DNA of 64,000 nucleotides, from assembly GCA_035420565.1 (NCBI GenBank), contig DAOLVF010000002.1:5896-69895 (forward strand). Reading direction: 5' to 3'. Of this stretch, positions 9,223 to 51,319 are shown piece by piece. The translations under genes were made by a program, and so were the position numbers. Source of the DNA: Spirochaetota bacterium (lineage in GTDB: Bacteria; Spirochaetota; UBA4802; UB4802). The notes under the pieces were generated by a model, which was given only the letters and a program-made list of their open reading frames with translations, was not told the DNA's origin and ran no database searches. How positions within the stretch are numbered: the stretch's first letter is position 1; each line of letters starts with the position of its first letter.

Positions 9223-10410
9223 TTATAGCAGCTGGTGTACACCATCATCTATGGTGCATTCATAGATATCAGGGGTCCTTCCCTCTTTTTTTTCAAATCG
9301 TTCAGCGATAGTTTTTTTAAAGTGTTCAACTGCATACAGAGCTACCATCGTTACCGTACAACCACCAAAACCGCCACCCATAAGCCGTGAGCCATACACG
9401 CCATCAATTTCTGATATCCATTCAACCATCGCATCTATAAGAGGAATACTCACCTCAAAGTAGTTACTCAGACTATGATGCGATTGATAAAGAAGCTTAC
9501 CGGCTTTTATAAGATTATACTTCTGAATTTCCTGTGCAAACTCATGTACACGATGGTTCTCAGATATTACATGAAACACCCTTTTATATTCAGTAATGGG
9601 AAGAATATCCTTGATGGTAGCAAGCTCATCAATACTGCAATCACAAAGACAATTAATGGCAAATCCAGACTTTTGTAATAAAGTCAATGCCCTTTCGCAT
9701 TCATTCCTTCTTTCGTTATAGCCCGATTCCCGTAAACTGTGCTTTACGCCGCTATTCACAAGGACAAAACGTATTGCAGATGCATCAATCGGGATATACT
9801 GAAATTCCATGGTTTTGGTGTTGAGCAAAAGCCCATTGTTTTTCCTGCCATTGACGATTGCCATTTGGTCCATTATCCCACATTGAACACCGGCAAAATC
9901 CCACTCTACCTGTTGCGCTTGTAACGCTACATCTATATTTTTCATTTTTTTGCCATGCAAAGTACATAACGCATACAGCGTTCCAACAGTAATTGCCGCA
10001 GAGCTTGACATGCCCGCACCAACAGGCAGGGTGCTATAAAAACTAATATCAAATCCAGATTCAAAATGTATATCTGACAGTACACAGGCACCTAAAGGAT
10101 ATACCAACCATTTATGTTTTGCCACATCCCTGATGTTTGGCAAGTGTATATTGCTGATAGCTATCTCCCCTTGCTCATGTTGCTGGTAAGAAGCAAAGCG
10201 CATGATGCCATCATTATTGCGTGATGCACATATATATATATGTTTATCGATAGCTATTGGGAAAACGGTGCCACCATTATAATCGATATGTTCACCGATA
10301 ATATTGATACGCCCTGGAGCAACAAATACACTGACATCAGAAGATTGAGGAAAATATTCTTTATGATGTGTAATTGCTGTATCAACTACTGAAGGCATAG
10401 ACACTAACAC
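9223..10410 (-). CDS. galK: galactokinase
   Basis: Galactokinase signature PGRINIIGEHIDYNGG, GHMP kinase motif PVGAGMSSSAA and C-terminal GGGFGGCTV. Confidence 0.9.
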   Translation of the reverse strand: MLVSMPSVVDTAITHHKEYFPQSSDVSVFVAPGRINIIGEHIDYNGGTVFPIAIDKHIYICASRNNDGIMRFASYQQHEQGEIAISNIHLPNIRDVAKHKWLVYPLGACVLSDIHFESGFDISFYSTLPVGAGMSSSAAITVGTLYALCTLHGKKMKNIDVALQAQQVEWDFAGVQCGIMDQMAIVNGRKNNGLLLNTKTMEFQYIPIDASAIRFVLVNSGVKHSLRESGYNERRNECERALTLLQKSGFAINCLCDCSIDELATIKDILPITEYKRVFHVISENHRVHEFAQEIQKYNLIKAGKLLYQSHHSLSNYFEVSIPLIDAMVEWISEIDGVYGSRLMGGGFGGCTVTMVALYAVEHFKKTIAERFEKKEGRTPDIYECTIDDGVHQLL

Positions 10411-11267
10411 AACAAAAACTGTAAAAGTGGAAATGCATGCTGAGTTAATGCAATTGTTACGGGTTTGTCAAAAGAATTCTCTGTATAACGTATTATGCCA
10501 AAAAATGATAACCATGTAATGACCGAAAAATCAAGCAATGAAACAGCAAACAGGTCGTTATATTTTGCAATCCCGGTTAGTTCAAAAAATGTCTGTGCAA
10601 CCTCGTCCAACTGTACTGATTTGTTTGTGTTTACAATGATATCCAATAGTAGCTGTCGGCTATTTTTAATCTCATTTGAGATGTATCCACCCGATGGAAA
10701 AAGGCTTTTCCAGTTACACTTATTCCAGAAAGCTAAAAACATCTGCCGATATAGATCGTCACTGTTTATTTCCATTATTTTATTCTCATTAATAATACCG
10801 GCAACCTTTAATATGATGCCAGTTTGTTTACAGTATATAGTAAGTAAATCACTATCATACTGCAATAAGGGATTGCTCAATAAACTATTGACGCATTGTG
10901 AGTAAAAATCTGCAGATAGCCGTTCATTTTTTTTTGGTTTTTGGTTTGTATTTTTAAGTATGTTGAGTATACACCGTGCAATAATTATTGCATTACAATT
11001 ATTTAAACATTCGCTATAATCATTTTGTATTTTTTTTGCTGCAAACCCAGCTTCAAAGGTATTGTTAACGTTCCATACCAATTTATAGCAGGATTGAAGA
11101 ACATCATGCATAATTTTATCTTTTTTTATTGATTTTACATTATTAAACCGCTTATCAATCTCGCTTGCAATCAAATCATTTGACAATTCATGTTCAAGTG
11201 CATACAGTGCAAGCGTATTTATTGATGATTTAAACCGATGCGTTATCACATCAGCAGCATGTTTCAT
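10404..11267 (-). CDS. hypothetical protein whose stop overlaps the galK start
   Basis: 287-aa ORF with no recognisable motif. Coding-like composition and a 7-nt overlap with galK. Confidence 0.5.
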   Translation of the reverse strand: MKHAADVITHRFKSSINTLALYALEHELSNDLIASEIDKRFNNVKSIKKDKIMHDVLQSCYKLVWNVNNTFEAGFAAKKIQNDYSECLNNCNAIIIARCILNILKNTNQKPKKNERLSADFYSQCVNSLLSNPLLQYDSDLLTIYCKQTGIILKVAGIINENKIMEINSDDLYRQMFLAFWNKCNWKSLFPSGGYISNEIKNSRQLLLDIIVNTNKSVQLDEVAQTFFELTGIAKYNDLFAVSLLDFSVITWLSFFGIIRYTENSFDKPVTIALTQHAFPLLQFLLC

Positions 11268-11298
11268 AGTTATATACTACTCCCTCAAAAATGGAATA

Positions 11299-11430
11299 AT
11301 ACCGTGTCATTCTTAATGAGCAAAGCAACTGAAGAATCTTGTTGTCCATATTGTCATTCTGAGGGGCAAAACCACAAAGAATATATTCTTTCATAAATGA
11401 CAAGATTCTTCGCTAACGCTTAGTATGACA
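11299..11430. repeat. MITE-like dispersed inverted-repeat element, copy A (short form)
   Basis: Contains two GTCATTCT(G/T)A...AAGAATCT units and ends ...ATGACA. Shares 5' and 3' modules with the copies at 22.9, 36.3 and 49.0 kb. Confidence 0.6.
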
Positions 11431-11988
11431 TACCCTTACAACGACTGCATGCATTGCTTCAACTTAGCTCAGCACAGGCACTTTTGCTTTAGAATGGCTA
11501 TAGGCTTCACCATAAGAATGCCAATAATGCTTCATTTCCATCATATTTAGGAAGATGCCCTGTAGCCATAAGGAAATCCACTGTTAAAAATATTTTAAAT
11601 AAAATGTACCAAAAAGGAATAAAACAATACAATATATGGTTACATCAGCTTATGAAATTAATTGATAAACATACTATCATGAATTAATTTTTAGTCAATT
11701 AATATTTTATTAAAATAAAAAAAAGTTGTAAAGGTAAAAAAATACTGTACATTTATTTACTTCACTAATATTAATATATTAAAAATTTTTGGTTTTTACT
11801 TGCATTAATAAAATGATTTTTTTTATTAATATTAATGTGTAACATTATTTAAACAAGGGAACCTCTAATAATTATATTCTGAATGTTTCCTTGTGAACAC
11901 AAGCATTGACAGCATGTTTTTTATTTTTTAATAACGAAAAACTTGATTTTTAAGGGCGTTCATAAATATAAAAACAAGAGGTCCGGGG

Positions 11989-13661: not shown

Positions 13662-13737
13662 CATATGTATTCTTCTATACATAGCATTATTCACCAGTGT
13701 CATTGAGGGCTTGACCAGGAATCTAAATAATTAACTG

Positions 13738-13812
13738 ATATCCTGAAATGAATTCAGGATGACACTCTGCACATTGTTATTCCAGGCTTACTTCTGCATC
13801 AAAATGACTGTC
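13738..13812. repeat. partial copy (F) of the MITE-like element, internal module
   Basis: CCTGAAATGA..TTCAGGATGACAC..CACATTGTTATTC matches the central part of the copies at 36.3 and 49.0 kb. Confidence 0.4.
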
Positions 13813-13955
13813 GCCAGCTATTTCCATCCCCTATGGAGGTCATAAGCCAGCCATGGGTAACTCCTCAGAAAATAGAAATTTTCATCTAATCAGCAGTTGA
13901 AAAATAATTGTACCAGGATTTTGTGGGACAAAATATTACAATTTTAGATATACCA

Positions 13956-19208: not shown

Positions 19209-19520
19209 AACACCCTCGCTTTATTATTGTACTACACTATAAAAACATCTTTTTTACATTATTGAGTTGCTATAAAAAAATCAATAAAAAAATTATTATA
19301 CAGCAACCTATCATTGTGGTTACACATACTCTATGAACAACAGCAATGTAGATTACCATATATGGAATTATGGAACAAATGAGTATGATTGGCGATAGTT
19401 ACCGGTAAAAAAGTGATTGTAAAAAACCTATGAAAAGTGATTGAATAAATTCATTACCATACTTATATGCTGTGACAATAGCATTTTGAGCGCAAACAAA
19501 GAATCATGCCGTTGTGGGGA

Positions 19521-19600
19521 TATGTCATTCTGAGCGTCAGCAAAGAATCTCGTCTTTTGTGAAAGAGTATATTTTCTGGGACTTCGTCCCTCAGAATGAC
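19521..19600. repeat. MITE-like element copy B (80-bp minimal hairpin form)
   Basis: TATGTCATTCTGAGCG...AAAGAATCT...CCCTCAGAATGAC with 11-bp terminal inverted repeats. Confidence 0.55.
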
Positions 19601-19662
19601 AAAATGTGTTGCGTTTACCTGGAATTATAACGGTAAAAAATCATAGTGTTAAGGAAAATTAT

Positions 19663-21523: not shown

Positions 21524-22687
21524 TTACTGTATAGGCGCTGTAATTACTTTGTAATTATTACAGTACTTTTCATATATTGTCATTATACAATTATAATTAA
21601 TGGATAAAAATTCGTTAGCGGTAAATCCAACGGGATTTTCCTTCCTGTAGCTCTTGATATGAAATGAAGCGAGCACCCGTTGAGCATTGATCATATACTG
21701 TCCATCAATCTTTTCAATATACCCTTTCTTGATGCAAAATTTTAAAAACCGTTTTAATTTTTTGTGGCGATAGTTACTATCCAAAAGGTATTCATCAATA
21801 CCGGGCAGTTTCCCTTCTTTGACCAGCACAATAATATCATTGATGACAGTATCTAACTGTGATGCCAATTCTTCTTTTTTAAGAACTATCGCTTTATCAA
21901 TATTTTCAACCGCCATTGCCATGCGCTGGAGATATGTTGCAGCAATCTGACTGAAGGTTATGGTATGTAAACTTTTTAAAATTTCAGAAACTCTATCTAA
22001 AAATTTTTCTTTATCCCCAAGCATAAAAAAGGGCTCCCCAACATTTATAAAAATATCCTTTTTACCGGCTATGCAACGGTCAACCTTAACATTAATTGGC
22101 AGTATATATAATTTTTGCCTGAAGTGGCGATAGGTACTATCAACAAGCTGGAATATCCCACTGCGTAAATTTTTTAAACCTCCAAAACTCCACGTTGTCC
22201 CTTCCGGAAATATAAGCGTAGAAAAACCACTATGTATAGAATGTTTAAACTTTACCATCTGAGAGTGTATCTCATGTTTCACCTGATTTTTATTGTCAAA
22301 ATCTTCTATGAAGGGGCGTGGAATATCAATCAGTTTCATCTTTTTGAAAAAAGCTTTTGGCAACCCTGTTTTATCTAAAAAATAAAAAAAATAATAGAGC
22401 AGTTTATTCTTTTCTCCAAAATTTGATGCCAGATAGTTCCCACTTAAAAAATCTTTTTTTGCCATTACCACAAAGTGTGGACGTGGTTTCAATGAATAAT
22501 ATACCTTTGAAAGGGATGGCACCTCAAAATAGCTATCATGCGTAGGGGCAAATATTACAAGGTGGGGGATTTTTTTTAGATATTCTTTCCCTTTTAAATG
22601 AGCTTTATGCCGCATAATCAATGAAGCAACTTTAAAACAGAAAATAAAAAATTCATAGACTATGCCATTTGATGGCTGCATATACAT
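21524..22687 (-). CDS. putative lysophospholipid/glycerol-phosphate acyltransferase-like protein (PlsC-like)
   Basis: PTHDSYFE (H-x4-D-like) and FPEGTTW motifs resemble acyltransferase blocks I and III. The match is weak. Confidence 0.45.
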   Translation of the reverse strand: MYMQPSNGIVYEFFIFCFKVASLIMRHKAHLKGKEYLKKIPHLVIFAPTHDSYFEVPSLSKVYYSLKPRPHFVVMAKKDFLSGNYLASNFGEKNKLLYYFFYFLDKTGLPKAFFKKMKLIDIPRPFIEDFDNKNQVKHEIHSQMVKFKHSIHSGFSTLIFPEGTTWSFGGLKNLRSGIFQLVDSTYRHFRQKLYILPINVKVDRCIAGKKDIFINVGEPFFMLGDKEKFLDRVSEILKSLHTITFSQIAATYLQRMAMAVENIDKAIVLKKEELASQLDTVINDIIVLVKEGKLPGIDEYLLDSNYRHKKLKRFLKFCIKKGYIEKIDGQYMINAQRVLASFHIKSYRKENPVGFTANEFLSINYNCIMTIYEKYCNNYKVITAPIQ

Positions 22688-22817
22688 ACCTCAAACCACT
22701 TTACTGGTATAAAAATAAACTATTCACCAGCAATTGTCAATAGTAAAAAATACATTAAAGTATAATGAAAAGCATGGTGTTTTCATCTTCAAATGATTGC
22801 ATTCCTCTTAAAATAGA

Positions 22818-22970
22818 ATACCGTGTCATTCTGAGAGACCCAGTCCCCAAGAATCTATCCTTTCATAAAAAGCAGAGATTCTTCACTTCGTTCAGAATGA
22901 CATCCCCATGCCACAGTGAGATTTTTTTCTTCGACTTCGCTCCACACAGACGGCTTCAGCTCAGAATGAT
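22818..22970. repeat. MITE-like element copy C
   Basis: ATACCGTGTCATTCTGAGAG...CCAAGAATCT...AGATTCTTCACTTCGTTCAGAATGAC...GCTCAGAATGAT. Shares its 5' module with copy A and its 3' module with the copies at 36.3 and 49.0 kb. Confidence 0.6.
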
Positions 22971-23146
22971 AGACGCTAAATATGTTCATCCCTTATGGCT
23001 GGATGAATGCTCTGCCATAAGCAACTACCCTAAAATTGCCTAAAATAATATTCTATAGGTGTTATCGTTTGATTTATAATACAATATTTTTTTAAAATTT
23101 TTTATTTTTTTATTTTGCTATTGACAAGAATTGCTATATATTTAAC

Positions 23147-23207: not shown

Positions 23208-23948
23208 ATGGTTATTGATTACATGGAAGAATTTAAATATTCAAAGGAAACTCGAACTGTCATATTGCAGGCTGCAAAGACGGAATTTGCTGAAAAAGGC
23301 TATGATGGTGCCCGTTTAAGTTTAATTGCTAAGCGAGCGGGGGTAAACCAGGCACTTATCCACTATTATTTTTCCAATAAGGAAAAACTATACCTTGAAG
23401 TGCTGCAATACCTGTTTCACCATGGAGAAATCAGCATTATCCGGGAACATCTGAAAGATGTTACATTAAATCCTAAAGAGGCTCTTTTTACAGCAATCTA
23501 CATACTGGTATATCTGCATCATAATGCCATTGATCCTGAAATAAATAAAATTATTTCATGGGAATTAGCGCAGGGTGGCGATAAATTTAAAATGCTCCTT
23601 ACCGATTATATGTTACCCAAACTCAACATGCTGTCGCAGGTAATTCAGGAGGGTATAGAAAGCGGGGACTTTGAAACTGATGATCCTTTTCTTGTTGTCT
23701 TTAACCTTACCAATATGGTTTTATCATTTGAAAATAGCAAACAATATCTCAAAGACACACCATGGTATGATCGCTTCTATGGCGGTGATAATGGAAAAAA
23801 GTTATTTGAGTTTGCCTTAAAAAGCACATTCAAGTCATTAGCCCCCAAACATAAAGCTTGTGAGATACCGCAAATAAATGAGGATTTAAAACATAAACTT
23901 GAAGAAATTATGCAAAAACTTAAAAACACTTCGGAGCATGAAAAATGA
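23208..23948 (+). CDS. TetR/AcrR family transcriptional regulator
   Basis: HTH motif TRTVILQAAKTEFAEKGYDGARLSLIAKRAGVNQALIHYYFSNKEKLY. Confidence 0.85.
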   Translation: MVIDYMEEFKYSKETRTVILQAAKTEFAEKGYDGARLSLIAKRAGVNQALIHYYFSNKEKLYLEVLQYLFHHGEISIIREHLKDVTLNPKEALFTAIYILVYLHHNAIDPEINKIISWELAQGGDKFKMLLTDYMLPKLNMLSQVIQEGIESGDFETDDPFLVVFNLTNMVLSFENSKQYLKDTPWYDRFYGGDNGKKLFEFALKSTFKSLAPKHKACEIPQINEDLKHKLEEIMQKLKNTSEHEK

Positions 23949-32321: not shown

Positions 32322-32945
32322 TCATATAGTATCAGAGGTAAATGGTCCTCCATCCAATACAAAAAAACCATACTCGGCAAAAAGGTTGGGCATAATAGGT
32401 ATTGTTACTGAATGAGAACGAATGGTTGAAAAATGCATTTCTTTTTTTATAGGATAACCAAACGCATTGCAAAAATCTCTGAAGTCCTTAATTGTTAAAA
32501 GATGTATATTCGGTGTTTCATACCATTCATAGGGTAATAATTTATTTTTCGGCATTCGGCCATAGATTGAAATATACAACCTCAGGCTATAATGGGCAAA
32601 GTTAGGAAAACTGAAGATAGCATTTAATGATATACGAAGCGATTCGCGTATAACAATCTCTGGTTTTTTTGTACTTTGCAACGTCTGATTAACAATCACA
32701 TAATCAAATGAATTGTCTTTATAATCGTTTAACCCTTCATCGATGTCGCCCTGATAACAGTACAATCCTTTTTCAACACATTGGCTTACACCTTCCGGTG
32801 AGATTTCAACACCAAATCCTTTAACTTTTCTTGTAGTTTGTAGCAACTTCAACAACTGACCATCACCACATCCTAAATCAAGCACCCGTGCACCATATGG
32901 AATCTCTTTTAGAATCAAATCATATGCAACCCTGTATTCCTTCAT
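32322..32945 (-). CDS. metW: methionine biosynthesis protein MetW (SAM-MTase-fold partner of MetX)
   Basis: VLDLGCGDGQLLKLL motif, about 200 aa, immediately downstream of metX with an overlapping stop/start. Confidence 0.75.
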   Translation of the reverse strand: MKEYRVAYDLILKEIPYGARVLDLGCGDGQLLKLLQTTRKVKGFGVEISPEGVSQCVEKGLYCYQGDIDEGLNDYKDNSFDYVIVNQTLQSTKKPEIVIRESLRISLNAIFSFPNFAHYSLRLYISIYGRMPKNKLLPYEWYETPNIHLLTIKDFRDFCNAFGYPIKKEMHFSTIRSHSVTIPIMPNLFAEYGFFVLDGGPFTSDTI

Positions 32946-34105
32946 TACCGGTGAACCTTTTCAAACTCCCGTTTTAAAAAATTAGCTATATTATGCTCCA
33001 ATTGTTCATGTGGCAGTAGAAATGTATCATGCCCTTTATCACTCTGTATTTCGGTAAAAATAACATTTTTGCTGTTCATACGCAACGCTCTAACAATCTC
33101 GCGCGATTGTGAAGTTGGGTATAACCAGTCAGAAGAAAAACTTATAACAAGGTAATTAGAATTTACATTAACAAAAGCATTAGCCAGATCACCATTAAAA
33201 TCATTCTTCAAATCAAAATAATCAATAGCTTTTGTGATATACAGATATGAGTTAGCATCAAATCTCTGAACAAAATCATTCCCTTTATGGTGAAGGTATG
33301 ACTCAACTTCAAACTCAAGATCCAGGTGAAATTTAAAAATATCTGAATGTTGCAATCTTCTGCCAAATTTTTCGTGCATCAGCTTCTCGCTCAGGTAGGT
33401 TATATGTCCAATCATACGCGCAAGTGATAGTCCATTCTTAGGATTTTCATTGTTATAATATTTACCATAATTCCAGTTGGGATCAAGCATAATTGCCTGT
33501 CTGCCAACTTCATTGAATGCTATTCCCTGTGCCGAAAGAGACGCTGCCGTTGCAATTGCTACTACAGACTGCACCATCTCAGGATATGATATTGACCATT
33601 GCAATGCCTGCATCCCACCCATTGAACCTCCAACAACTGATAAAAGCTTTTGTATCCCCAAAAATTTAATTAAATGATATTGCGCATTTACCATATCCTG
33701 AATAGTGACAATGGGAAAATCCAAACCATATTCTTTTCCCGTTTCAGGATTAATGGATGATGGACCGGTTGAACCGCTGCATCCGCCAATAACATTGGAA
33801 CAAATAACAAAATAGTGTGATGTATCAAAAGTTTTACCGGGACCAATATAAATATCCCACCAACCCGGATATATATCTTTTTTTGAATGGTATCCTGCCG
33901 CATGTGCTGAACCTGAAAGGGCATGAAGTATTAATATGGCATTACTTTTGTCACTGTTAAGAGTACCGTATGTTTCATAGGCTAATGTTATTGGCCCAAG
34001 TTTTTTCCCTGAAACCAATAACAATTCATCAGGTGGCTCAGCAAAAGTGAAATAATTAGTAGTAACGATACCAGCCGAATTTCCAGGTATTATCTCCGCT
34101 TTCAT
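32945..34105 (-). CDS. metX: homoserine O-acetyltransferase
   Basis: Alpha/beta hydrolase with [12 protein letters not shown] nucleophile elbow. Full-length MetX similarity. Confidence 0.9.
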
Positions 34106-35973: not shown

Positions 35974-36250
35974 AACAACCCTCCTCCAAAAAAATTACAA
36001 TATCGTGGTCTATGCCATCCCTCAGTGTGTTTGTATCGGAGTGATGCATCTTCACATTGCATTTATCTATTCATAGTCATTGCACAACCTATTACATTTT
36101 GGCAAAAATATCTTTTCTCTATCAACATGATTGCCATGATAGTTTTTATCCTCGAAATAACATTACCCTATCGTTTATCATATTTGTATAACAACAGCTC
36201 AATGTTTCTTCCCCACCCAAAAGAGCATATGGCTCCTCCGAAAATAGAAG

Positions 36251-36479
36251 TATGTGCCAATGTCATCCCAGACTTTGTCCGGAATCTCTTTTTCCACATT
36301 CGTCATTCCGGGCTTGCCACGGAATTTAAATATGTAATCTTAGAGCCTGAAATGATACTGAAACCGGTTCAGAACATTATTCAGGATGACACACCCCACA
36401 TTGTTATTCTGAGGAACGCAGCCCCGAAGAATCTATTCGTTTATAAAATGACGAGATTCTTCACTTCGTTCAGAATGAC
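36251..36479. repeat. MITE-like element copy D, full-length 229 bp
   Basis: TATGTGCCAATGTCATCC...TTCAGAATGAC. The same length and termini as copy E at 48885..49113. Composed of four GTCATYC...GAATCT hairpin modules. Confidence 0.7.
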
Positions 36480-36865
36480 TATCGGTTTCGCCTCAGCATG
36501 ACGATACTATGCAATTTTCATCCCCTACGGGTAGTCCATCGACAACTATCTCATAGAAGCACTCTATTGAACACTATATGTTGTATTCCACCTTGTGTGT
36601 ATATTGTTATACCATATTCCTTTGCTATACTTTTTTATTATATTAATTCATTCTGTTATTTTCTTATTGACCATAAACAAACTGTACAATGTGTCAATCA
36701 ATTATTTTATTTCATCGCATAGTTATAACAAATAGTTCTTTAAAAATATTGCAATGTTGGTAAAAAAATTATTGAAGAAAATACAATAATAGCGTAAGTG
36801 CAATGAAGTATTATTCAATTCCAGCAATAAATGAAAAAAGTTTACAATACCATAGGATAATCCAC

Positions 36866-40432: not shown

Positions 40433-40816
40433 TTGTATAATTATTTTCCGGTGAAAAGGAGATATTCAATAAAAGGGCGGAGGAGTTTTAAAGATGTTAT
40501 TGTTAATGGCAGACGATTTTATAGTAAAGGTATACGAATGATAGTGCATATACAACCAGCACATGAAACATTGTTTATTGGGAATGAGTCAGTTTCACAT
40601 TTTTCCATAGCTGTTAATAAAAATTTTGGGGATGCAGTTGAACGTAACAAAATCAGAAGAAGAATAAAATCTATACTTAATACTCTTTTGCCTCAGATAC
40701 AACAGGGTTTTGCTGTTATTATTTTTCCTGATAAAACCTGTAAGGCAATGCCATATACTCACCTTTCAGGTTTGGTAAAACAATTGTTGCTTAGATCAGG
40801 AGTGCTCAAACAATGA
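40433..40816 (+). CDS. rnpA: ribonuclease P protein component
   Basis: Basic protein with RNR motif [11 protein letters not shown], directly after rpmH. The start codon is non-ATG (TTG at 40433 or GTG at 40451), so the 5' end is uncertain. Confidence 0.8.
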
Positions 40817-41034
40817 AGATAAATATTATTTCATTGCCAATATTATTGATAAAAATGTATAAGCTTATTATTTCACCATTGTTACCCAATGTTTGCAGAT
40901 TTTATCCAACATGTTCAAGCTATGCAATAGAAGCATTGAGCAAACATGGACTCTGTAAAGGTGGTTTTTTATCAATCAAGCGGATACTACGCTGTCATCC
41001 ATATTGTGACGGTGGGTATGATCCTGTTCCTTAG
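40813..41034 (+). CDS. yidD: membrane protein insertion efficiency factor YidD
   Basis: [27 protein letters not shown]...[14 protein letters not shown], the canonical YidD motif. Confidence 0.9.
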
Positions 41035-41144
41035 CACAATTCTTGACAGTTACCCCTCATATCACTCCTTTTCACCTATTATAATATTTCAATAATAGTC
41101 ATATTTTTTTATTTTATATCTAGAAAGTTAAACAAGAGGTTGTT

Positions 41145-42764
41145 ATGGAAAAAAGGGCTTTAATTGCAGTTTTATTATCTTTGCTGATATGGATATTATG
41201 GTTTTATTTATTTCCGCCGCAGGAAAAAAAACCTGCAGTTCAAGATAAGAAAGTTGAAGTTGAACAAACGGTTGAAATTAAAAAACCTGAATTGAAACAA
41301 CTTTCAAAATTCCTGGAATTATCCCGCTTAAAGGAAGAAGTGACTGTTGATTCACATTATTATAAAGCCGTGCTTTCCAATCATGGCGCTGCATGTACCT
41401 CGTTCATTGATAAAACCCGAAATATTGAGCTTGTGGTCAATAAAAGCAAATACATTGCCAGGGGTATTTTTGATTTTCCTGTACATTTTACAACTGGAGA
41501 ATTTTTGCTATCAACAGAAAGTGATTATACAAACTGGAAATTACAAAAAGAAACAGATTCGATACGCTTTTTTACAGGTGCTATCGTGCAAAATAATCCA
41601 TTGCACATTGTAAAGACATTTACCTTTGATGAAAAAGGGCAATTTTTTACGGTGTCATTCAGTATCACCAATAGAGCTATAAATGAATTTTCTTTTCCTG
41701 AAGGCAGATTAATTTATTCTCCTTCAGATTTTTTAGGCCCCTCAATGGATTTTAATAATTCGTACAACGAGTTGAACAGTATATATTATCTTGATGATGA
41801 TTTTGAAAAGGCACGGAAAGGCTCAGGATTTTTTTCAAACCATGAGGATATAAAAGAGATCAATGGTGTTGTAAAATGGGCAGGCATCATGAGCAGGTAC
41901 TATCTGCTCATAATGATACCGCAAGGTTTTCAGGGTTCTGGTGTTGTTTACGATAACAGGGAACATACTGGATTCAGGACGGGGATTATTGTACCGGCAA
42001 AACCTCTAAAGCCTGGCGAAAAAATAGAACACGTTTTCAAGATATATGTTGGGCCTAAAAATAAGGATAAACTTTTAGCTGTGGATAAACAGATTGGAGA
42101 TGCAGCCGATGTAAGCAAATGGATAGAGCCTATACGTGATTTTATGATGTGGTGTTTGCTTGGCATTAATAAATTGTTAGGGAATTTAGGCTGGTCATTA
42201 GTAATATTTTCAGTTATAACAAAAATAATGTTCTTACCCTTAACCAAACGTTCTACTGAGTCAATGAAGAAGATGCAGGAATTAAACCCAGTTGTTCAAG
42301 AACTTCGCGAAAAGTATAAAGATAAGCCTGATATCTTGAATAAGAAGATAATGGAAGTATATAAAAAGAACAAGGTCAACCCCATGGGTGGGTGCTTACC
42401 ACTATTGTTGCAAATGCCATTTTTCTTTGCACTTTATAGCGCTCTGATTAATTCTGTAGATTTATGGCAGGCACCATTTATTTTGTGGATTAAGGATCTT
42501 TCATTACCTGATACTGTTTTCACCATTTCAGGATTCAACATTAATATTTTACCTATAGTGATGACAGCAACAACATATTTACAACAAAAAATGTCTACTG
42601 GCGAAGCTTCTCAGCAGCAAAAAATGCTTTTGTTTATGCCACTTATATTTATAGTTATATTCTGGAATATGCCATCCGGATTGGTATTATACTGGATCAT
42701 GCAGAATGTTTTACAAATAGCTCATCAAATGGTAGTAAACCGGAAACCAAAGACTGAAAAGTAG
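41145..42764 (+). CDS. yidC: membrane protein insertase YidC (long periplasmic domain form)
   Basis: N-terminal TM, large periplasmic beta-domain, and a C-terminal 60-kDa-IMP core (GGCLPLLLQMPFFFALY). Confidence 0.95.
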   Translation: MEKRALIAVLLSLLIWILWFYLFPPQEKKPAVQDKKVEVEQTVEIKKPELKQLSKFLELSRLKEEVTVDSHYYKAVLSNHGAACTSFIDKTRNIELVVNKSKYIARGIFDFPVHFTTGEFLLSTESDYTNWKLQKETDSIRFFTGAIVQNNPLHIVKTFTFDEKGQFFTVSFSITNRAINEFSFPEGRLIYSPSDFLGPSMDFNNSYNELNSIYYLDDDFEKARKGSGFFSNHEDIKEINGVVKWAGIMSRYYLLIMIPQGFQGSGVVYDNREHTGFRTGIIVPAKPLKPGEKIEHVFKIYVGPKNKDKLLAVDKQIGDAADVSKWIEPIRDFMMWCLLGINKLLGNLGWSLVIFSVITKIMFLPLTKRSTESMKKMQELNPVVQELREKYKDKPDILNKKIMEVYKKNKVNPMGGCLPLLLQMPFFFALYSALINSVDLWQAPFILWIKDLSLPDTVFTISGFNINILPIVMTATTYLQQKMSTGEASQQQKMLLFMPLIFIVIFWNMPSGLVLYWIMQNVLQIAHQMVVNRKPKTEK

Positions 42765-42914
42765 CAACATGGAAACGAGGATAAATGTAAGTCTTAATGC
42801 AAAAATTATAGTACATTAAATACAATATGAGATTTCTACCATTTTTTGATTTTTTCAGGAGGTGTGTAACAAATACTATTATCATAATTCATTATTATAA
42901 GTATCATAGGAGGC

Positions 42915-43562
42915 GTGGAGATGAAGGTTTTAGATATTGAAGGAAAAACCGTTGAAGAAGCAACAAAAAAAGCATTATTACAATTAAAAATTGATGATAT
43001 GAACAAAATCAACATTGAAGTCCTTGATGAAGGTAAAAGCGGAATATTTGGTTTTGGCATATCACGCCCTGCTAAGATTAGAGTATACTATCAGCAGCAA
43101 AATGATGTTGGTGAAAAAGCAAAAGAAATAATAGAAAAAATAATGTCATTAATGGATGTTAATGCTACTGTTAAAGATTTTAAAGAAAGCGAAAATAAGG
43201 TATATGTAGAGTTAGAAAGTTTAAATTCAGGTTTAATAATAGGTAAAAAAGGTAAAACACTGGAAGCATTGCAATTCATGATAAATCTTCTGGTTAATAA
43301 GGTTACCAGTTCAGAAAAAAAGATTATCCTTGACATAGAATCGTACCGAGCAAAAAGAGAACGAGCCTTACGAAAATTATCGAAGGAGATAGCTTTAAAA
43401 GTAGCCCGAACCGGAAAACCATGGACACTTGAACCCATGAATCCGTTTGAACGAAGGCTTATTCATTTAACATTACAAAATGACTCAAAAGTGACAACAA
43501 AAAGTGAGGGACAGGGCATATATCGAAAGGTAAAAATTATGCCCATTGAAAAAGGCAGGTAA
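42915..43562 (+). CDS. jag: Jag/KhpB RNA-binding protein (Jag_N, KH, R3H)
   Basis: KH motif IIGKKGKTLEALQ and R3H motif ERRLIHLTLQNDSKVTTKSEGQG. Strong AGGAGG RBS. Confidence 0.85.
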   Translation: MEMKVLDIEGKTVEEATKKALLQLKIDDMNKINIEVLDEGKSGIFGFGISRPAKIRVYYQQQNDVGEKAKEIIEKIMSLMDVNATVKDFKESENKVYVELESLNSGLIIGKKGKTLEALQFMINLLVNKVTSSEKKIILDIESYRAKRERALRKLSKEIALKVARTGKPWTLEPMNPFERRLIHLTLQNDSKVTTKSEGQGIYRKVKIMPIEKGR

Positions 43563-43563
43563 G

Positions 43564-44925
43564 ATGCAAGAAACCATTTGTGCTCCAGCAACACCGCCTG
43601 TACATGCACCAATAGCAATTATACGAATCAGCGGCCCTGAATCCTTACGGGTCGCTTCTTCTATTTTTAAACAACACAATAAACAAACTATATCCACACC
43701 CCGTTATGCATACTATGGGACAATCTTTGATGGGGAATATGAAATTGATGATGCGATAGTTATTTATTACGCACAACCGCATAGCTATACAGGCGAGGAC
43801 ATGGTTGAAATATTCTGTCATGGCAATCCTATTATTGTTAATAAAATAATGAATCGCCTTCTGGCATTGCATGTACGTATAGCCCAGCCAGGAGAATTTA
43901 CTAAACGAGCTTTTTTTAACGGAAAAATGGACCTCACCGAAGCTGAAGCTATCAATCATATTATAACAGCCCGGAGTGAATGGGAAATAGCTACGGCAAT
44001 ACAGCAAAAACATGGATCGTTACGCACTACTATCAATAAACTGAAACAAACAATAGTAGAGTTAAAAGCTGATATTGAATGTGCCATTGACTTTATTGAT
44101 CAGGATATCGAAATAATCTCTTATCAGGATGCTCAGCAAAGGATAGAAGATATTATTCATACCATACAGGAAATTATCAACAGATGTAAGGTTGGGAATA
44201 ATTTATCTCATGGGATAGATATTGCTATTGTTGGCAAACCCAATGCAGGGAAATCAAGCTTTTTAAACTGTGTGGTCAATCATGAGCGTGCAATTGTTTC
44301 AGATGAACCGGGTACAACGCGTGATGTTATAAAAGAATCAGTTACCATTCATGGCATTCAATGTAATCTATACGACACAGCAGGGATTCATGATGTAGCA
44401 TCAGGGATTGAACTGCTGGGAGTTCAAAAAAGCTACAGGATTATTGACGAGGTTTCACTCTTATTTTTTATCCTTGATGCTACAAGTGGTTTTACCGTTG
44501 AAGATTCCCATATTCTTGAGCGCATCAGTTCCAAACCATATATCCCCGTTATTAATAAATGCGATATTGCCTCACCCGAACAAATCAATGCTATCAATAC
44601 ACAATTGCCCAAAAAAGGGATTGTGTTTGCAGCCACAACAGGCTATGGTATGGATGTGCTGGAGCATACGGTGTCTGATTTTATTCAAAGCTCGTATGTC
44701 AACTACACCAATTCATTTATTGCTGATATTCGTATTATACAGCTTTTAGAGCAATCCAGCGCAGGTGCCCATGAGGTGCGGGAGCAGCTACTCAAGCAAA
44801 GCCCTCACGAGATTATAGCATCAGCATTGCAGGATGTCATTGACACTATTGGTGCAATAACCGGTGAAATTACTGTTGATGATGTTCTCAATTCAATCTT
44901 TTCACGCTTTTGTATAGGCAAATGA
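43564..44925 (+). CDS. mnmE: tRNA uridine-5-carboxymethylaminomethyl modification GTPase MnmE
   Basis: G1 motif GKPNAGKSSFLN, G3 motif DTAG, and C-terminal CIGK. A possible earlier start lies at 43546, overlapping jag. Confidence 0.9.
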   Translation: MQETICAPATPPVHAPIAIIRISGPESLRVASSIFKQHNKQTISTPRYAYYGTIFDGEYEIDDAIVIYYAQPHSYTGEDMVEIFCHGNPIIVNKIMNRLLALHVRIAQPGEFTKRAFFNGKMDLTEAEAINHIITARSEWEIATAIQQKHGSLRTTINKLKQTIVELKADIECAIDFIDQDIEIISYQDAQQRIEDIIHTIQEIINRCKVGNNLSHGIDIAIVGKPNAGKSSFLNCVVNHERAIVSDEPGTTRDVIKESVTIHGIQCNLYDTAGIHDVASGIELLGVQKSYRIIDEVSLLFFILDATSGFTVEDSHILERISSKPYIPVINKCDIASPEQINAINTQLPKKGIVFAATTGYGMDVLEHTVSDFIQSSYVNYTNSFIADIRIIQLLEQSSAGAHEVREQLLKQSPHEIIASALQDVIDTIGAITGEITVDDVLNSIFSRFCIGK

Positions 44926-48010: not shown

Positions 48011-48706
48011 CTATAGCCCTCTGATGTCACAGTAAGTGGCAAAGGTTTGGACAAATTGGCGGAACAATAATAATATTTCTTCTGGATAAGGTTTTACTCT
48101 GTGTAAGTCTTCATCCATTGTGTGATCATTGTTAAATTGCTGTAAATAATAATGGGATACCTGACCAATCTGTTCTTTAATGCTATGTAAATCTTCTAAT
48201 GTTACAAATTCTGGCACACAGGTAGTGCGCACCTCAAATTGGATATCAAAATCTTTAAGCAAACGAATAGATTCTTTGATACAATTAAACGATAACTTTG
48301 TTTTTGTTAAAAGCGAATATTTTTGAGGAGATGTCTTTATATCTATTGCAACATAATCAACAAGATTTTTTATTATAATTTTTTTTAGAATATCAGGCTG
48401 GAAACCGTTGGTATCTAATTTTATTTTCATTCCCAGCGATTTAATATTTTCAAGAAATTGCAGTATCCCTTTTGCAATCGTTGGTTCACCACCTGTCAGT
48501 ACTACCGCTCCAATGAGATGTTTTCTACTTCGTAAAAGATCAATTACTTCTTCATTTGAATAATAGTGTAGGTTACAATCATTATATGCTAATGATGGAT
48601 TATGACAATAACTACACCGCAAATTACATCCCCCGGTAAAAAGTACTGTACTAATAGCACCCGGATAATCAATGAGTGATGTTTTCTGTATACCCCGAAT
48701 ATTCAT
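48011..48706 (-). CDS. nrdG: anaerobic ribonucleoside-triphosphate reductase activating protein (radical SAM)
   Basis: DYPGAISTVLFTGGCNLRCSYCHNP (C-x3-C-x2-C) and GGEP motifs. Lies directly downstream of the nrdD pieces. Confidence 0.85.
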   Translation of the reverse strand: MNIRGIQKTSLIDYPGAISTVLFTGGCNLRCSYCHNPSLAYNDCNLHYYSNEEVIDLLRSRKHLIGAVVLTGGEPTIAKGILQFLENIKSLGMKIKLDTNGFQPDILKKIIIKNLVDYVAIDIKTSPQKYSLLTKTKLSFNCIKESIRLLKDFDIQFEVRTTCVPEFVTLEDLHSIKEQIGQVSHYYLQQFNNDHTMDEDLHRVKPYPEEILLLFRQFVQTFATYCDIRGL

Positions 48707-48860
48707 GATCTACAACCTTTAATAATTCTTTTGCCATGAATTCCTTTCTTTCATGAAACTCTTCCTGCTTGCCTTTATTCCATTGATTCACAGGTCGGAA
48801 ATAACCAACAACACGAGAATATACCTCAACAGGTATTTTCTTTTCAGTATTTCTTTGCAT
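48669..48860 (-). CDS. nrdD: stand-alone C-terminal glycyl-radical segment of class III ribonucleotide reductase (NrdD fragment)
   Basis: SRVVGYFRPVNQWNKGKQEEFHERKEF carries the NrdD glycyl-radical motif R-V-x-G-Y and the flanking conserved WN-GKQ-E residues. It has its own GGAGG RBS 8 nt upstream of the ATG. Confidence 0.7.
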   Translation of the reverse strand: MQRNTEKKIPVEVYSRVVGYFRPVNQWNKGKQEEFHERKEFMAKELLKVVDHEYSGYTENITH

Positions 48861-48884
48861 CAGAACCCCCTCCGAATATAGTTT

Positions 48885-49113
48885 TATGTGCCAATATCAT
48901 TCTGTACTTGAACAAGAATCTCTTTTGCCGCTTTTGTCAATCCTGACCTTTTCAGGAATCCAAATTTGTAACCTTATATCCTTAAATGATCCTGAAACCA
49001 GTTAAGAATATTATTCAGGATAACACACTGCACACTATCATTCTGAGAGACGCGCTCCCAGAGAATCTATTCTTCCATAAAACGAAAAGATTCTTCACTT
49101 TGTTCAGAATGAC
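48885..49113. repeat. MITE-like element copy E, full-length 229 bp, between the two nrdD pieces
   Basis: TATGTGCCAATATCATTC...TTCAGAATGAC. Collinear with copy D at 36251..36479. Confidence 0.7.
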
Positions 49114-49231
49114 AATAGTACTCCATTTTTATCACTTACCATAACTGCAATGCAGCCATCAACAATCCCTTGAAAATAAATATACAGTCAAGCAATACTC
49201 ATAAATACAATCTATTCAACAACTTATACGT

Positions 49232-51319
49232 TTACGAGACAATCCGATGGGTTGTCTCTATGGGTTTTGATAATTCTCTATCTTCTATTTCGACTTCTAT
49301 TCCAAACATCTCAAGCTCTTCTTTTGTATGTGGATAAGGACAATATGTGTGATTCCCAGGTATATATCCATGAACAGGGCAAATACTAAATGTTGGCGTA
49401 ATGGTAAAATATGGTATGTGATAGTTATAAGCTATTGATTTTACCAGTATTTTTACCATTTCCGGATCATCAATCTTCTCTCCAATAAAACAGTGAACAA
49501 CGGTACCGCCGGTAAACTTTGCTTGTAACTGATCCTGATGGTCAAGGAGATCAAATATATCGTGAGCATATCCCACCGGTGGATGGATCGAATTTGTATA
49601 ATATGGTTCATTCTTACCAGAGGTAATAATGTCCGAAAATCTATTTTTATCATGTCGTGCAAACCTATAGCTAACGCCTTCAGCAGGGGTAGCTTCAAGA
49701 TTATATAAATTGCCTGTCGCATGCTGATACATGACTATTTTACTGCGCATAAAATCCAGCACTTCCCCGGTGAAAGCTTTTCCTTCATCAGTTGTAATGT
49801 CCTGCCCTAAAAGGTTTAAACAGGCTTCATTCATACCAACAAGTCCAATTGTTGAAAAATGATTTATCCAGTACTTCTTAAATCGTTTATATACATCACG
49901 GAGATAGAATCTGGTATAGGGATAAAGATTGTTAGAAGTAAAGTTTTCTAAGACTTTTCTTTTGATCTCAAGTGAATTGCTTGCTACATCCATCAAATGT
50001 GATAAACTTGCAAGGAATTCATCCTTTGATTTAGAAAGGTATCCTAACCTTGGCATATTAATGGTTACCACACCTATACTTCCCGTTAAAGGATTAGCTC
50101 CAAAAAGCCCACCACCTCGTTTTCGCAGTTCACGATTATCAAGCCTTAATCGGCAACACATCGAGCGGGCATCATCAGGATCCATATCAGAATTTACAAA
50201 GTTTGCAAAGTATGGGATACCATATTTAGCGGTTATCTCCCATAAAAGATGTATGGAAGGATTATCCCAATCAAAATCTTTTGTGATGTTATACGTTGGT
50301 ATAGGAAATGTAAAAATTCGGTGTCGCGCATCACCCTCAAACATACATTCTGCAAAAGCAGTATTAAATATATCCATCTCTTTCTGAAATTCAGCATAGA
50401 TTGCATCCATACTTTCTCCACCAATAATGACATGTTCATTGGCAATTGAGCGAGGTACGGTCAGATCCATGGTAACATTGGTAAATGGCGTCTGGAATCC
50501 TACACGAGTTGGTATGTTCATATTAAAGATGAATTCCTGGAGACACTGCTTAACACCTGCATAATCCAGATTATCATACCGTATAAATGGCGCAAGGTAC
50601 GTATCAAAGTTTGCAAATGCCTGTGCACCGGCTGATTCCCCCTGTAATGTATAAAAAAAATTGACTATCTGCCCCAATGCGCTTCGGAAATGTTTTGCCG
50701 GCCTGCTTTCAACCTTTCCGGGAACTCCTCCAAAACCAGTTAATAATAAATCTCGCAAGTCCCAGCCTACACAGTAAGCCGACAGCAAACCTAAATCATG
50801 AAGATGCAGATCACAATTGGTATGAGCATCGCGTATCTCAGGTGGATAAATACGTTCAAGCCAGTATTTTGCAGTAATTGCAGAAGCAATATGGTTATTT
50901 AATCCCTGAAGAGAATAACTCATATTACTATTCTCATTTACCCGCCAATCTGACCTATCAAGATAATCTTCAATGAGCTGGATTCCTTCATTAAGAAGGT
51001 CTTTACTTTCTCGTATCTTTCTGTGCTGTTCACGGTAGAGGATATATGCTTTAGCTACCTTAGCATGCCCTTTCTCAATGAGCATCTTTTCAACTAAATC
51101 CTGAACATTTTCTACCGTCGGGATATGTTCATCCTTATACAATATGGATAATATATCAACAACTGATTCGGCAATATGTACTGCTGCATTCCTATCGGTA
51201 CCACCAACTGCTTTTGCTGCTTTAAAGATTGCTTCTGTGATCTTTTCAATATCAAATGGCACTATTCTGCCATCACGTTTCCTTATAAACTGAGGGGTTG
51301 TTGTTATTACATCTGACAT
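49232..51319 (-). CDS. nrdD: anaerobic ribonucleoside-triphosphate reductase, large body (ATP-cone + 10-strand barrel), lacking the glycyl-radical C-terminus
   Basis: N-terminal ATP-cone VIKRDGRIVPFDIEKI and class III RNR barrel similarity throughout. The C-terminus ends ...CPVHG...YCPYPH (zinc-ribbon remnant) with no RVxGY motif. True start at 51319; the first 42 codons of the ORF are an artefact. Confidence 0.9.
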   Translation of the reverse strand: MSDVITTTPQFIRKRDGRIVPFDIEKITEAIFKAAKAVGGTDRNAAVHIAESVVDILSILYKDEHIPTVENVQDLVEKMLIEKGHAKVAKAYILYREQHRKIRESKDLLNEGIQLIEDYLDRSDWRVNENSNMSYSLQGLNNHIASAITAKYWLERIYPPEIRDAHTNCDLHLHDLGLLSAYCVGWDLRDLLLTGFGGVPGKVESRPAKHFRSALGQIVNFFYTLQGESAGAQAFANFDTYLAPFIRYDNLDYAGVKQCLQEFIFNMNIPTRVGFQTPFTNVTMDLTVPRSIANEHVIIGGESMDAIYAEFQKEMDIFNTAFAECMFEGDARHRIFTFPIPTYNITKDFDWDNPSIHLLWEITAKYGIPYFANFVNSDMDPDDARSMCCRLRLDNRELRKRGGGLFGANPLTGSIGVVTINMPRLGYLSKSKDEFLASLSHLMDVASNSLEIKRKVLENFTSNNLYPYTRFYLRDVYKRFKKYWINHFSTIGLVGMNEACLNLLGQDITTDEGKAFTGEVLDFMRSKIVMYQHATGNLYNLEATPAEGVSYRFARHDKNRFSDIITSGKNEPYYTNSIHPPVGYAHDIFDLLDHQDQLQAKFTGGTVVHCFIGEKIDDPEMVKILVKSIAYNYHIPYFTITPTFSICPVHGYIPGNHTYCPYPHTKEELEMFGIEVEIEDRELSKPIETTHRIVS

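Follow-up and report, generated by a model that had tools for sequence, protein, structure and literature searches.

Oriented hairpin arrays in an uncultured Spirochaetota genome: a probable version of the CGTC/TGTC-tagged repeat class and putative sites of Ssn-type GIY-YIG nucleases

The window analyzed here, 64,000 nucleotides of contig DAOLVF010000002.1 (assembly GCA_035420565.1) from an uncultured Spirochaetota species of anaerobic digesters, carries six loci, denoted A to F, that consist of short hairpin-forming repeats, all of them located between called genes. A first-pass annotation, made from the sequence alone, had described these loci as six copies of one family resembling MITEs, small transposable elements of the inverted-repeat type, and the family is real: BLASTN searches of the window with D and E, together with repeat finding, recover all six loci far above chance, with a core of about 80 nt common to D/E, C, A and B (inverted in B) and an arm pattern, AGATTCTT-N8-YTCAGAATGAC, for which shuffling the window 100 times gives an expectation of 0 matches. 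D and E are indeed collinear, but over a longer segment than the 229 bp assigned to them, namely, 248 nt, with 16 nt more on the left and 3 nt more on the right, aligned without gaps at 76% identity (59 differences). Likewise, a partial copy F is present where one had been placed, at 13738-13812, but it reaches further left. The nested inverted repeats, the TGTCAT...ATGACA termini, the intergenic location and the unusual local density are all as originally described, and so are the predicted long hairpins, the 83-nt doublet of D folding better than all 200 shuffles on each strand (z -3.8 and -4.1). Additional conserved modules lie to the right of C, D and F.

Hairpin units and their arrays

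The building block of the six loci is an oriented hairpin unit of about 27-40 nt, (T/C)GTC-ATTCT-GA-GCGNAGC-GA-AGAAT-C, which in its canonical form reads TGTC-ATTCT-GA-GCGNAGC-GA-AGAAT-CTC. A covariance model, R1, built from 70 units of other genomes only and run over the whole window unfiltered, gives seven significant matches (E 1e-8 to 0.005) and 10 weaker ones, exclusively within A-F. Together with two fully paired variants found by eye, these 17 matches bring the total in the window to 19 units: three in A, two in F, two in B, two (plus one degenerate) in C, and five each in D and E. The arrays and their parts are as follows.

Array A, 11299..11431, plus strand: units 11304-11340 (+), 11351-11385 (+) and 11402-11431 (-), with R1 scores of 19.9, 15.9 and 26.2 bits; BLASTN match to D/E at 11346-11430; 32 nt upstream of the start of the minus-strand gene 10404-11267, in a divergent intergenic region
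Array F, 13687..13885, plus strand: units 13697-13725 (+) and 13737-13765 (-) plus a degenerate unit; BLASTN match at 13687-13782, sharing the middle part of D/E; between convergent genes
Motif CCATCCCCTATGG of F, 13823-13838, right of the units
Solitary module TTCTATTTTCTGAGGAG..ATG of F, 13863-13877, minus strand
Array B, 19519..19602, minus strand: one head-to-head doublet, units 19522-19551 (+) and 19578-19602 (-); BLASTN match at 19519-19628, in the opposite orientation to D; PFK start (19663; Pfam) 61 nt downstream
Canonical unit of B, 19522-19551, plus strand: GCGNNAGC-type apex GCGTCAGC, R1 37.7 bits, E 1.5e-6
Variant unit of B, 19578-19602, minus strand: nested GGGAC-GAA-GTCCC
Array C, 22804..23043, plus strand: doublet 22823-22857 (+) / 22875-22903 (-) and a degenerate unit ending near 22970; BLASTN match at 22824-22902; between an acyltransferase gene (21524-22687, -) and a TetR gene (23208-23948, +; Pfam)
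Module TTCTATTTTAAGAGG of C, 22804-22818, minus strand
Best canonical unit of C, 22875..22903, minus strand: R1 47.1 bits, E 1e-8
Motif CATCCCTTATGG of C, 22987-23000
Array D, 36235..36575, plus strand: five units in the order + + - + -, at 36260-36288 (+), 36300-36328 (+), 36352-36392 (-), 36401-36435 (+) and 36453-36481 (-); match at 36235-36482 (BLASTN and repeat finding); GT4 gene downstream (Pfam)
Left module TTCTATTTTCGGAGG of D, 36235-36249, minus strand
Unit 2 of D, 36300-36328: CGTC-tagged, stem ATTCCG/CGGAAT
Best canonical unit of D, TAGTCATTCTGAACGAAGTGAAGAATCTC, 36453..36481, minus strand: R1 44.1 bits, E 5e-8
Right partial unit CCTCAGCATGAC of D, about 36489-36500
Right motif CATCCCCTACGG of D, 36518-36531
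Array E, 48869..49116, plus strand: collinear with D, five units in the order + + - + -, at 48894-48922 (+), 48934-48962 (+), 48986-49026 (-), 49035-49069 (+) and 49087-49115 (-); match at 48869-49116 (BLASTN and repeat finding); occupying the spacer that separates the two nrdD pieces, the large one (stop 49232) and the C-terminal one of 63 aa (ATG 48860)
Best canonical unit of E, 49087..49115, minus strand: first loop G replaced by A (ACAAAGT), R1 44.5 bits, E 4e-8

The neighboring genes named in the first-pass annotation, PFK, TetR and GT4 downstream of B, C and D and the nrdD pieces around E, are thus supported by Pfam. All 19 units are oriented and hairpin-forming, and most end in AT-C. 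An intact GTC precedes the stem in 15 of them, the tag being TGTC in 13 cases, AGTC in one (36453-36481) and CGTC in one (36300-36328); column 2 of alignment A4 is mostly T. The stem begins with AT and comprises nine positions, two of them taken up by the tandem G·A; canonical units have a loop of 3-4 nt and variants a longer one, and the tail reads C(T)C. In the best canonical unit of D, the tag GTC is followed by the stem ATTCT/AGAAT, the tandem GA/GA and the apex ACGAAGT with a GAA triloop, and a core identical to this unit occurs in Saccharibacteria, Bacteroidales, Chloroflexota and other genomes. For the canonical unit of B, the predicted DNA fold agrees with the model. The apical 7-8 nt of the unit correspond exactly to the consensus of mini-hairpin DNA, d(GCGNAGC)/d(GCGNNAGC) (PMC13037366), which is otherwise a biophysical motif known from phage origins and as a tool, not a family of genomic repeats, whereas in the present unit it caps a longer stem that is protein-specific.

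The element of about 80 bp that had been taken for a minimal hairpin is a head-to-head doublet of two units, and all core doublets of the window are head-to-head, with both orientations present within each array and across genomes. A, B and C, which the first-pass annotation derived from a 229-bp master copy by internal deletion, are better described as different combinations of the unit. Between D and E, two base pairs of unit 2 have been replaced in a compensatory manner (G-C to T-A and G-C to A-T), whereas unit 3 of E has uncompensated changes, so that the upkeep of the units within one mosaic is uneven.

Distribution of the unit and its GIY-YIG partner

When one genome per species was scanned with the pattern GTCATTCTGARCG-N3-6-RAAGAATCT, at least 120 loci were found, among which the nearly unchanged unit is present in more than 15 bacterial phyla. 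The matches listed come from Nitrospirota, the candidate phyla radiation (Saccharibacteria, Gracilibacteria), Acidobacteriota, Chloroflexota, Bacteroidota, Clostridia, Helicobacter, Verrucomicrobiota, Planctomycetota, Treponema, Fibrobacter, Omnitrophota, Caldisericales and others. The unit is also found in viral contigs, in which a 31-mer specific to D/E has 0 matches. The prospect, named in the first-pass annotation as one that would refute it, that the family might be limited to the copies in this window is at odds with this distribution.

For the analysis of covariation, 250 units were gathered with a pattern that does not require pairing; the 4-nt stems are perfectly complementary in 234 of them. 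Among the units not fixed by the search pattern, 55 of 71 are complementary, compared to 15.4 on average and at most 23 upon random re-pairing. The stem variants include TTCT/AGAA, TCCT/AGGA, CCCT/AGGG, TTTC/GAAA, TTCC/GGAA and TGCT/AGCA, the apical closing pairs covary as well (GC..GC in 165 units, AC..GT in 54, GT..AC in 5), and the loops are GAA (84), GCA (58), GGA (27), GTA (24) and GNNA forms. In these other genomes, paired units are arranged head-to-head in 57 cases, tail-to-tail in 18 and head-to-tail, that is, in the same orientation, in 15. The two arms carry different, individually self-complementary stems in 40 of the 57 head-to-head doublets, which implies selection on the hairpin of each unit rather than on the long hairpin of the doublet.

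Some of the individual loci deserve mention. A contig from a viral collection (L013, 8920-9530) contains, where the 3' ends of two genes face each other, about eight doublets in tandem, in which ATTCT/AGAAT and ATCCT/AGGAT units alternate, the arms being individually, not mutually, complementary. Elsewhere, in a likeness to intragenic insertions of the RPE type, units lie within coding sequence: a doublet is in frame within a 453-aa response-regulator open reading frame (ORF) (L045, about 2764-2860; …AVILSEAKNL…), and a unit contributes to what is predicted to be a lipoprotein signal peptide (MKNSFPSVILSVAKNLAMLS…) in a metagenome-assembled genome (MAG) of Fibrobacter (L054, about 7195-7220).

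Clustering of all ORFs within 400 nt of the units, for the 120 loci listed, identified one recurrent specific family of neighbors, proteins of about 95-110 aa encoded at five loci, each bracketed by units; these are GIY-YIG proteins by Pfam (5e-17) and have weak matches in the PDB to UPF0213 proteins. No recurrent transposase or Y1 family was found beside the units of these loci, and the recurrent partner is a small GIY-YIG nuclease instead of the IS200/IS605 TnpA suggested originally. The association also holds in reverse. Among the best 80 metagenome loci matching an alignment seeded from the unit-adjacent genes, a sample that represents one clade, 48 possess a strict unit no more than 200 nt upstream or 250 nt downstream of the GIY-YIG gene (35 upstream, 36 downstream, 23 both); the background, more than 500 nt from these genes, is 8 units in 190 kb (0.042 per kb), so that the enrichment is about 60-fold.

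The Ssn proteins are single-domain GIY-YIG nucleases of about 94 aa that bind and cut only single-stranded DNA (ssDNA), next to a hairpin repeat (PMC11893778). In Neisseria, this repeat is the NTS (CGTCATTCCCGCGMAVGCGGGAATCYRG), a subset of dRS3, the general name being SRM, and ssnA is typically laid out as NTS-ssnA-NTS, resembling an insertion sequence (IS) (PMC11893778). We scanned viral contigs for canonical NTS and then searched them by tblastn with the five GIY-YIG proteins: full-length homologs (40-47% identity, E 1e-15 to 1e-28) are encoded at six loci, and at four of these (L273, L296, L329 and L223), the homolog genes are directly flanked by canonical NTS. Given these 40-47% identical, NTS-flanked homologs, the tandem-G·A unit and its GIY-YIG clade form a sister pair to NTS and SsnA. 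The likeness extends to the repeats themselves, which share a (C/T)GTCAT 5' side, a stem that starts with ATTC and ends with ..AAT (GAAT-C) followed by a conserved C, an apex that fits GCG(N)NAGC in both (GCGMAVGC in NTS), high copy number, clusters, inverted pairs, and a position on one or both sides of a gene for a single-domain GIY-YIG protein of about 95 aa. The differences are that, in the unit described here, the tandem G·A/A·G separates a 5-bp stem from a 2-bp apex, whereas the NTS stem is continuous over 8-9 bp, and that the present version is nearly invariant across many phyla.

A second known group, overlapping the first, comprises the CGTC-tagged repetitive extragenic palindromic (REP) sequences (the tag is often TGTC and may be CCTC), which have AT-starting stems, occur mostly as head-to-head dimers and include dRS3 of Neisseria as well as RPE-4/RPE-6 of Rickettsia (PMC3733652). 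The units described here have the same unpaired CGTC/TGTC tag, a stem whose first pairs are A·T and T·A, a short tail that is likewise unpaired, a predominance of head-to-head dimers and, in other genomes, occasional intragenic copies, and they too are without a known dedicated transposase. The families described so far are mostly alphaproteobacterial, with stems of 8-9 bp, loops of 4-5 nt and a CCA-like tail (PMC3733652); here, in contrast, the tandem G·A breaks the stem, the loop comprises 3-4 nt, C(T)C forms the tail, and the host is a Spirochaetota MAG.

The combination of short extragenic palindromes, inverted doublets, mosaics, a repeat-bracketed partner gene and recognition of an ssDNA hairpin is also typical of REPs, bacterial interspersed mosaic elements (BIMEs) and REPINs, and the head-to-head doublets with their BIME-like organization would fit REPINs mobilized by a Y1 transposase (RAYT). 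This explanation, already disfavored, seems to us scarcely tenable. The systems in question have a GTAG tag, an HUH Y1 enzyme and lineage-specific sequences, as opposed to the (C/T)GTC tag, the GIY-YIG neighbors and the near-invariant unit across phyla seen here; no Y1 family is present in the Pfam-annotated parts of the window, and where PMC3733652 speaks of the CGTC REPs, it gives them 'no dedicated transposase'.

We consider it probable, therefore, that the six loci are BIME-like mosaics that represent a Spirochaetota version of the CGTC/TGTC-tagged REP superfamily (SRM) and putative ssDNA sites of an Ssn-type nuclease. Under this scenario, the units would work as DNA, not RNA: when the region becomes single-stranded, during replication, repair or in incoming transforming DNA, each unit would fold alone, an Ssn-family nuclease, small and made up of one GIY-YIG domain, would bind the hairpin and the following C, and the enzyme would cut the single strand at a distance of a few nucleotides on the 5' side of the GTC tag. 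Most of the window units have the GTC just 5' and the C just 3' of the hairpin palindrome; in the characterized system, the GTC before the palindrome matters for cleavage and the C after it for binding (PMC11893778). The nuclease gene would typically be bracketed by units (unit-ssn-unit, IS-like), and the units would build up in intergenic DNA as head-to-head doublets and larger arrays, as REPs and BIMEs do around RAYTs.

Gene context and history of the arrays

Five of the six arrays are upstream of or between genes, and E is almost certainly co-transcribed with nrdD. An alternative is that the arrays are cis elements at the RNA level, that is, transcribed hairpins that would function as mRNA stabilizers, processing sites, attenuators or terminators in leaders or between the nrdD pieces. 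The stable long doublet hairpins on both strands and the modules resembling a Shine-Dalgarno (SD) sequence and ATG that border the arrays on one strand are compatible with such a role, and where PMC3733652 touches on function, REP-type repeats elsewhere are reported as RNA elements. As the primary explanation, we find this unlikely. A scan of 36150-36650 matched no Rfam family even at E<=1, and at gathering thresholds, Rfam recognized in the window only a SAM riboswitch, with none in the arrays; the terminator function that had been contemplated is not borne out, with no terminator-like sites in any copy and no T-runs after the hairpins; and a promoter scan found nothing in the arrays, the promoter-like matches being no more frequent than in shuffles. 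Furthermore, the units occur in both orientations within arrays and across genomes, their conserved apex is that of a DNA mini-hairpin, the arms of doublets are often not mutually complementary, and RNA is not bound by SsnA (PMC11893778). RNA-level roles are nevertheless compatible with the DNA-level interpretation, not exclusive of it. The riboswitch (RF00162, 34181-34281, minus strand, 91.5 bits) is located upstream of the minus-strand gene 32945-34105.

Nor is a protein-coding reading of C and D tenable. The ORFs 22765-23043 and 36025-36501, over C and D, were flagged early on as spurious, and coding is ruled out: the differences between D and E are spread 20/18/21 over the codon positions, and E has in-frame stops. 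Also ruled out is that array E split nrdD, because sister species share the split with a spacer of 24-36 nt, and the C-terminal piece is stand-alone in all of the best 120 matches. The large piece (49232-51319, minus strand) encodes 695-737 aa, and the small one (48669-48860, minus strand), 63 aa with the glycyl-radical motif RVVGY, overlapping the start of nrdG (48011-48706, minus strand) by 38 nt. The best 120 database relatives of the small piece are all stand-alone proteins of 44-96 aa, many labeled Spirochaetota, and a stand-alone glycyl-radical subunit for class III ribonucleotide reductase appears widespread in this group. A short junction peptide found no match in the PDB, where the full-length query succeeded.

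The borders of the arrays contain modules that resemble gene starts. On the minus strand, the module TTCTATTTT-N1-2-GAGG followed by ATG borders arrays at 36235-36249, 22804-22818, 13863-13877, 48869-48884 and 11283-11300, and C, D, E and F have similar SD-ATGG starts, with ORFs of 4-10 codons, on the opposite side. Exact matches to the TTCTATTTT module occur at arrays only, and a loose pattern is not above chance across the window. On the plus strand, C, D and F are each followed on the right by a motif of 13-14 nt, TYCATCCCYTAYGG (22987-23000, 36518-36531 and 13823-13838). In the sister locus L354 (about 10990-11010), the counterpart of this motif is where the acyltransferase gene has its SD-ATG start (GGAGGCAGCCATGAGGGATC), and, judging from this correspondence, the copies in the window may be relics of a gene start carried along in mosaic copying.

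A bolder scenario, and to our minds a decidedly long shot, is that an Ssn-type nuclease copies the arrays on ssDNA as mobile, non-autonomous mosaics, which would land at translation starts and carry or duplicate SD-ATG modules, thereby rebuilding the start of the downstream gene, with the G·A unit forming one horizontally spreading lineage, almost identical in more than 15 phyla. Hints of landing at translation starts are that the GGAGG preceding the ATG of the 63-aa NrdD piece falls within the segment homologous between D and E, and that the relic resembling the acyltransferase start lies, at C, about 300 nt upstream of the present start. If this were true, copying by an Ssn-type nuclease would be a mode of transposition or homing new for the GIY-YIG fold.

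Comparison with relatives places the arrays in time. The nrdD spacer that holds E measures 371 nt in the window, compared to 24-36 nt in relatives, no unit is present upstream of PFK (the site of B) in a relative of 88% identity, and the acyltransferase-TetR spacer of L354 (a 70% relative) is without about 312 nt that include C; thus, all three orthologous sites in sister species (B, C and E) are empty, and no significant units are present in 36.9 kb of these relatives. Within the species, B, C, D and E are unchanged in all strains examined (contigs of >=99% identity). The empty sister sites and the uniform strains indicate that the arrays were gained in this lineage after the split from the sister species and are now fixed.

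That the arrays are insertions relative to sister species is what would be expected of classical MITEs as well, namely, deletion derivatives of an IS with TGTCAT inverted ends, moved by a DDE or IS200/IS605 transposase, and the inverted termini, the size variants of 80-250 bp and the IS-like unit-ssn-unit layout (PMC11893778) lend this view some appeal. Yet, we judge it highly improbable, and the original designation as MITE-like is not sustained. The apparent termini are two copies of one unit, with more units inside; no target-site duplication is visible at D or E, although the junctions of E and C are blurred by spacer divergence; neither a parent IS nor an IS with matching ends is seen in the annotated parts of the window; the 120 loci listed have no recurrent transposase family beside the units; and a near-identical 27-mer in more than 15 phyla is unlike the ends of an IS, which are IS-specific. 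As for the wider setting, the window probably lies close to the replication origin, given the presence of a rpmH-rnpA-yidD-yidC-jag-trmE cluster (40433-44925, plus strand).

Weighing of the evidence and significance

Several observations weigh against the interpretation of the arrays as Ssn sites. The published SRM sequence, HGTCWYN(0-2)YYVSBRHN(0-5)WNVSBRGN(0-2)RNCYNB, has 0 matches in the window and does not match the canonical unit; it also matches only 2 of the 80 GIY-YIG loci, with the NTS positive control passing. No Ssn homolog is encoded within the 64 kb (tblastn, best E 0.18). A single canonical unit does not fold better than shuffles in nearest-neighbor DNA folding (z about 0.2), the tables of which do not cover GNA triloops and sheared G·A pairs; the case for the unit hairpin is comparative, complemented by what has been published about GNA mini-hairpins and about G·A pairs in tandem. 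Many units in the window are degenerate, D and E are 24% divergent, the arrays lie in or near transcribed regions, so that effects at the RNA level are also possible, and B, C, D and E show no presence/absence polymorphism among strains of >=99% identity and hence no sign of current activity. With regard to the first of these points, the published sequence is a search heuristic derived from 29 genomes, not a definition of the class. It misses the tandem-G·A unit, and genome surveys that employ it therefore under-count the class.

Much of the same evidence speaks for orphan relics, that is, decaying remnants of a past SRM/Ssn expansion, with the nuclease gene lost and only incidental hairpin effects left. 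Degenerate units with R1 scores of 9-15 bits, several uncompensated stem changes along with the divergence of D and E, the missing ssn gene and the intraspecific uniformity are all in line with such decay, and the published survey lists no SsnA homolog for 19% of those genomes that contain over 200 SRMs (PMC11893778). This alternative is a serious one, but we hold it to be clearly the less likely: four canonical units remain near the cross-phylum consensus (38-47 bits), unit 2 of D/E has kept its pairing through two compensatory changes, there are no indels between D and E over 248 nt, and the arrays are younger than the split from the sister species. In line with the Ssn-site interpretation, we infer that a cognate Ssn is encoded elsewhere in this genome and that the arrays are still active rather than relics. 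The biochemistry of Ssn and its effect on the recombination of incoming DNA have been shown for the Neisseria and Wolbachia enzymes only (PMC11893778), and it is by analogy with these that the nuclease of the present units would be expected to cleave specifically ssDNA and to modulate recombination. Of the functions proposed in the first-pass annotation, that of a recombination substrate is not far from the established picture of the SRM class.

The oriented hairpin arrays described here are a new example of a class of repeats that was described in 2013 (Di Nocera et al., PMC3733652) and tied in 2025 to small ssDNA-cutting nucleases (Chenal et al., PMC11893778). The novelty is modest and consists in a G·A-interrupted, mini-hairpin-capped consensus that falls outside the published pattern, in the near-invariance of this consensus across phyla, in mosaics of five units and, at the level of hints, in arrays at gene starts with SD-ATG modules. 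What seemed to be a new MITE becomes a recognizable member of the CGTC-REP/SRM class, which is thereby extended to an uncultured Spirochaetota species of anaerobic digesters. For genome annotation, the units explain why spurious ORFs turn up repeatedly whose peptides include VILSEAKNL and FFTSFRMT. In enzymological terms, these observations nominate a widespread clade of Ssn proteins, together with a defined candidate ssDNA site.

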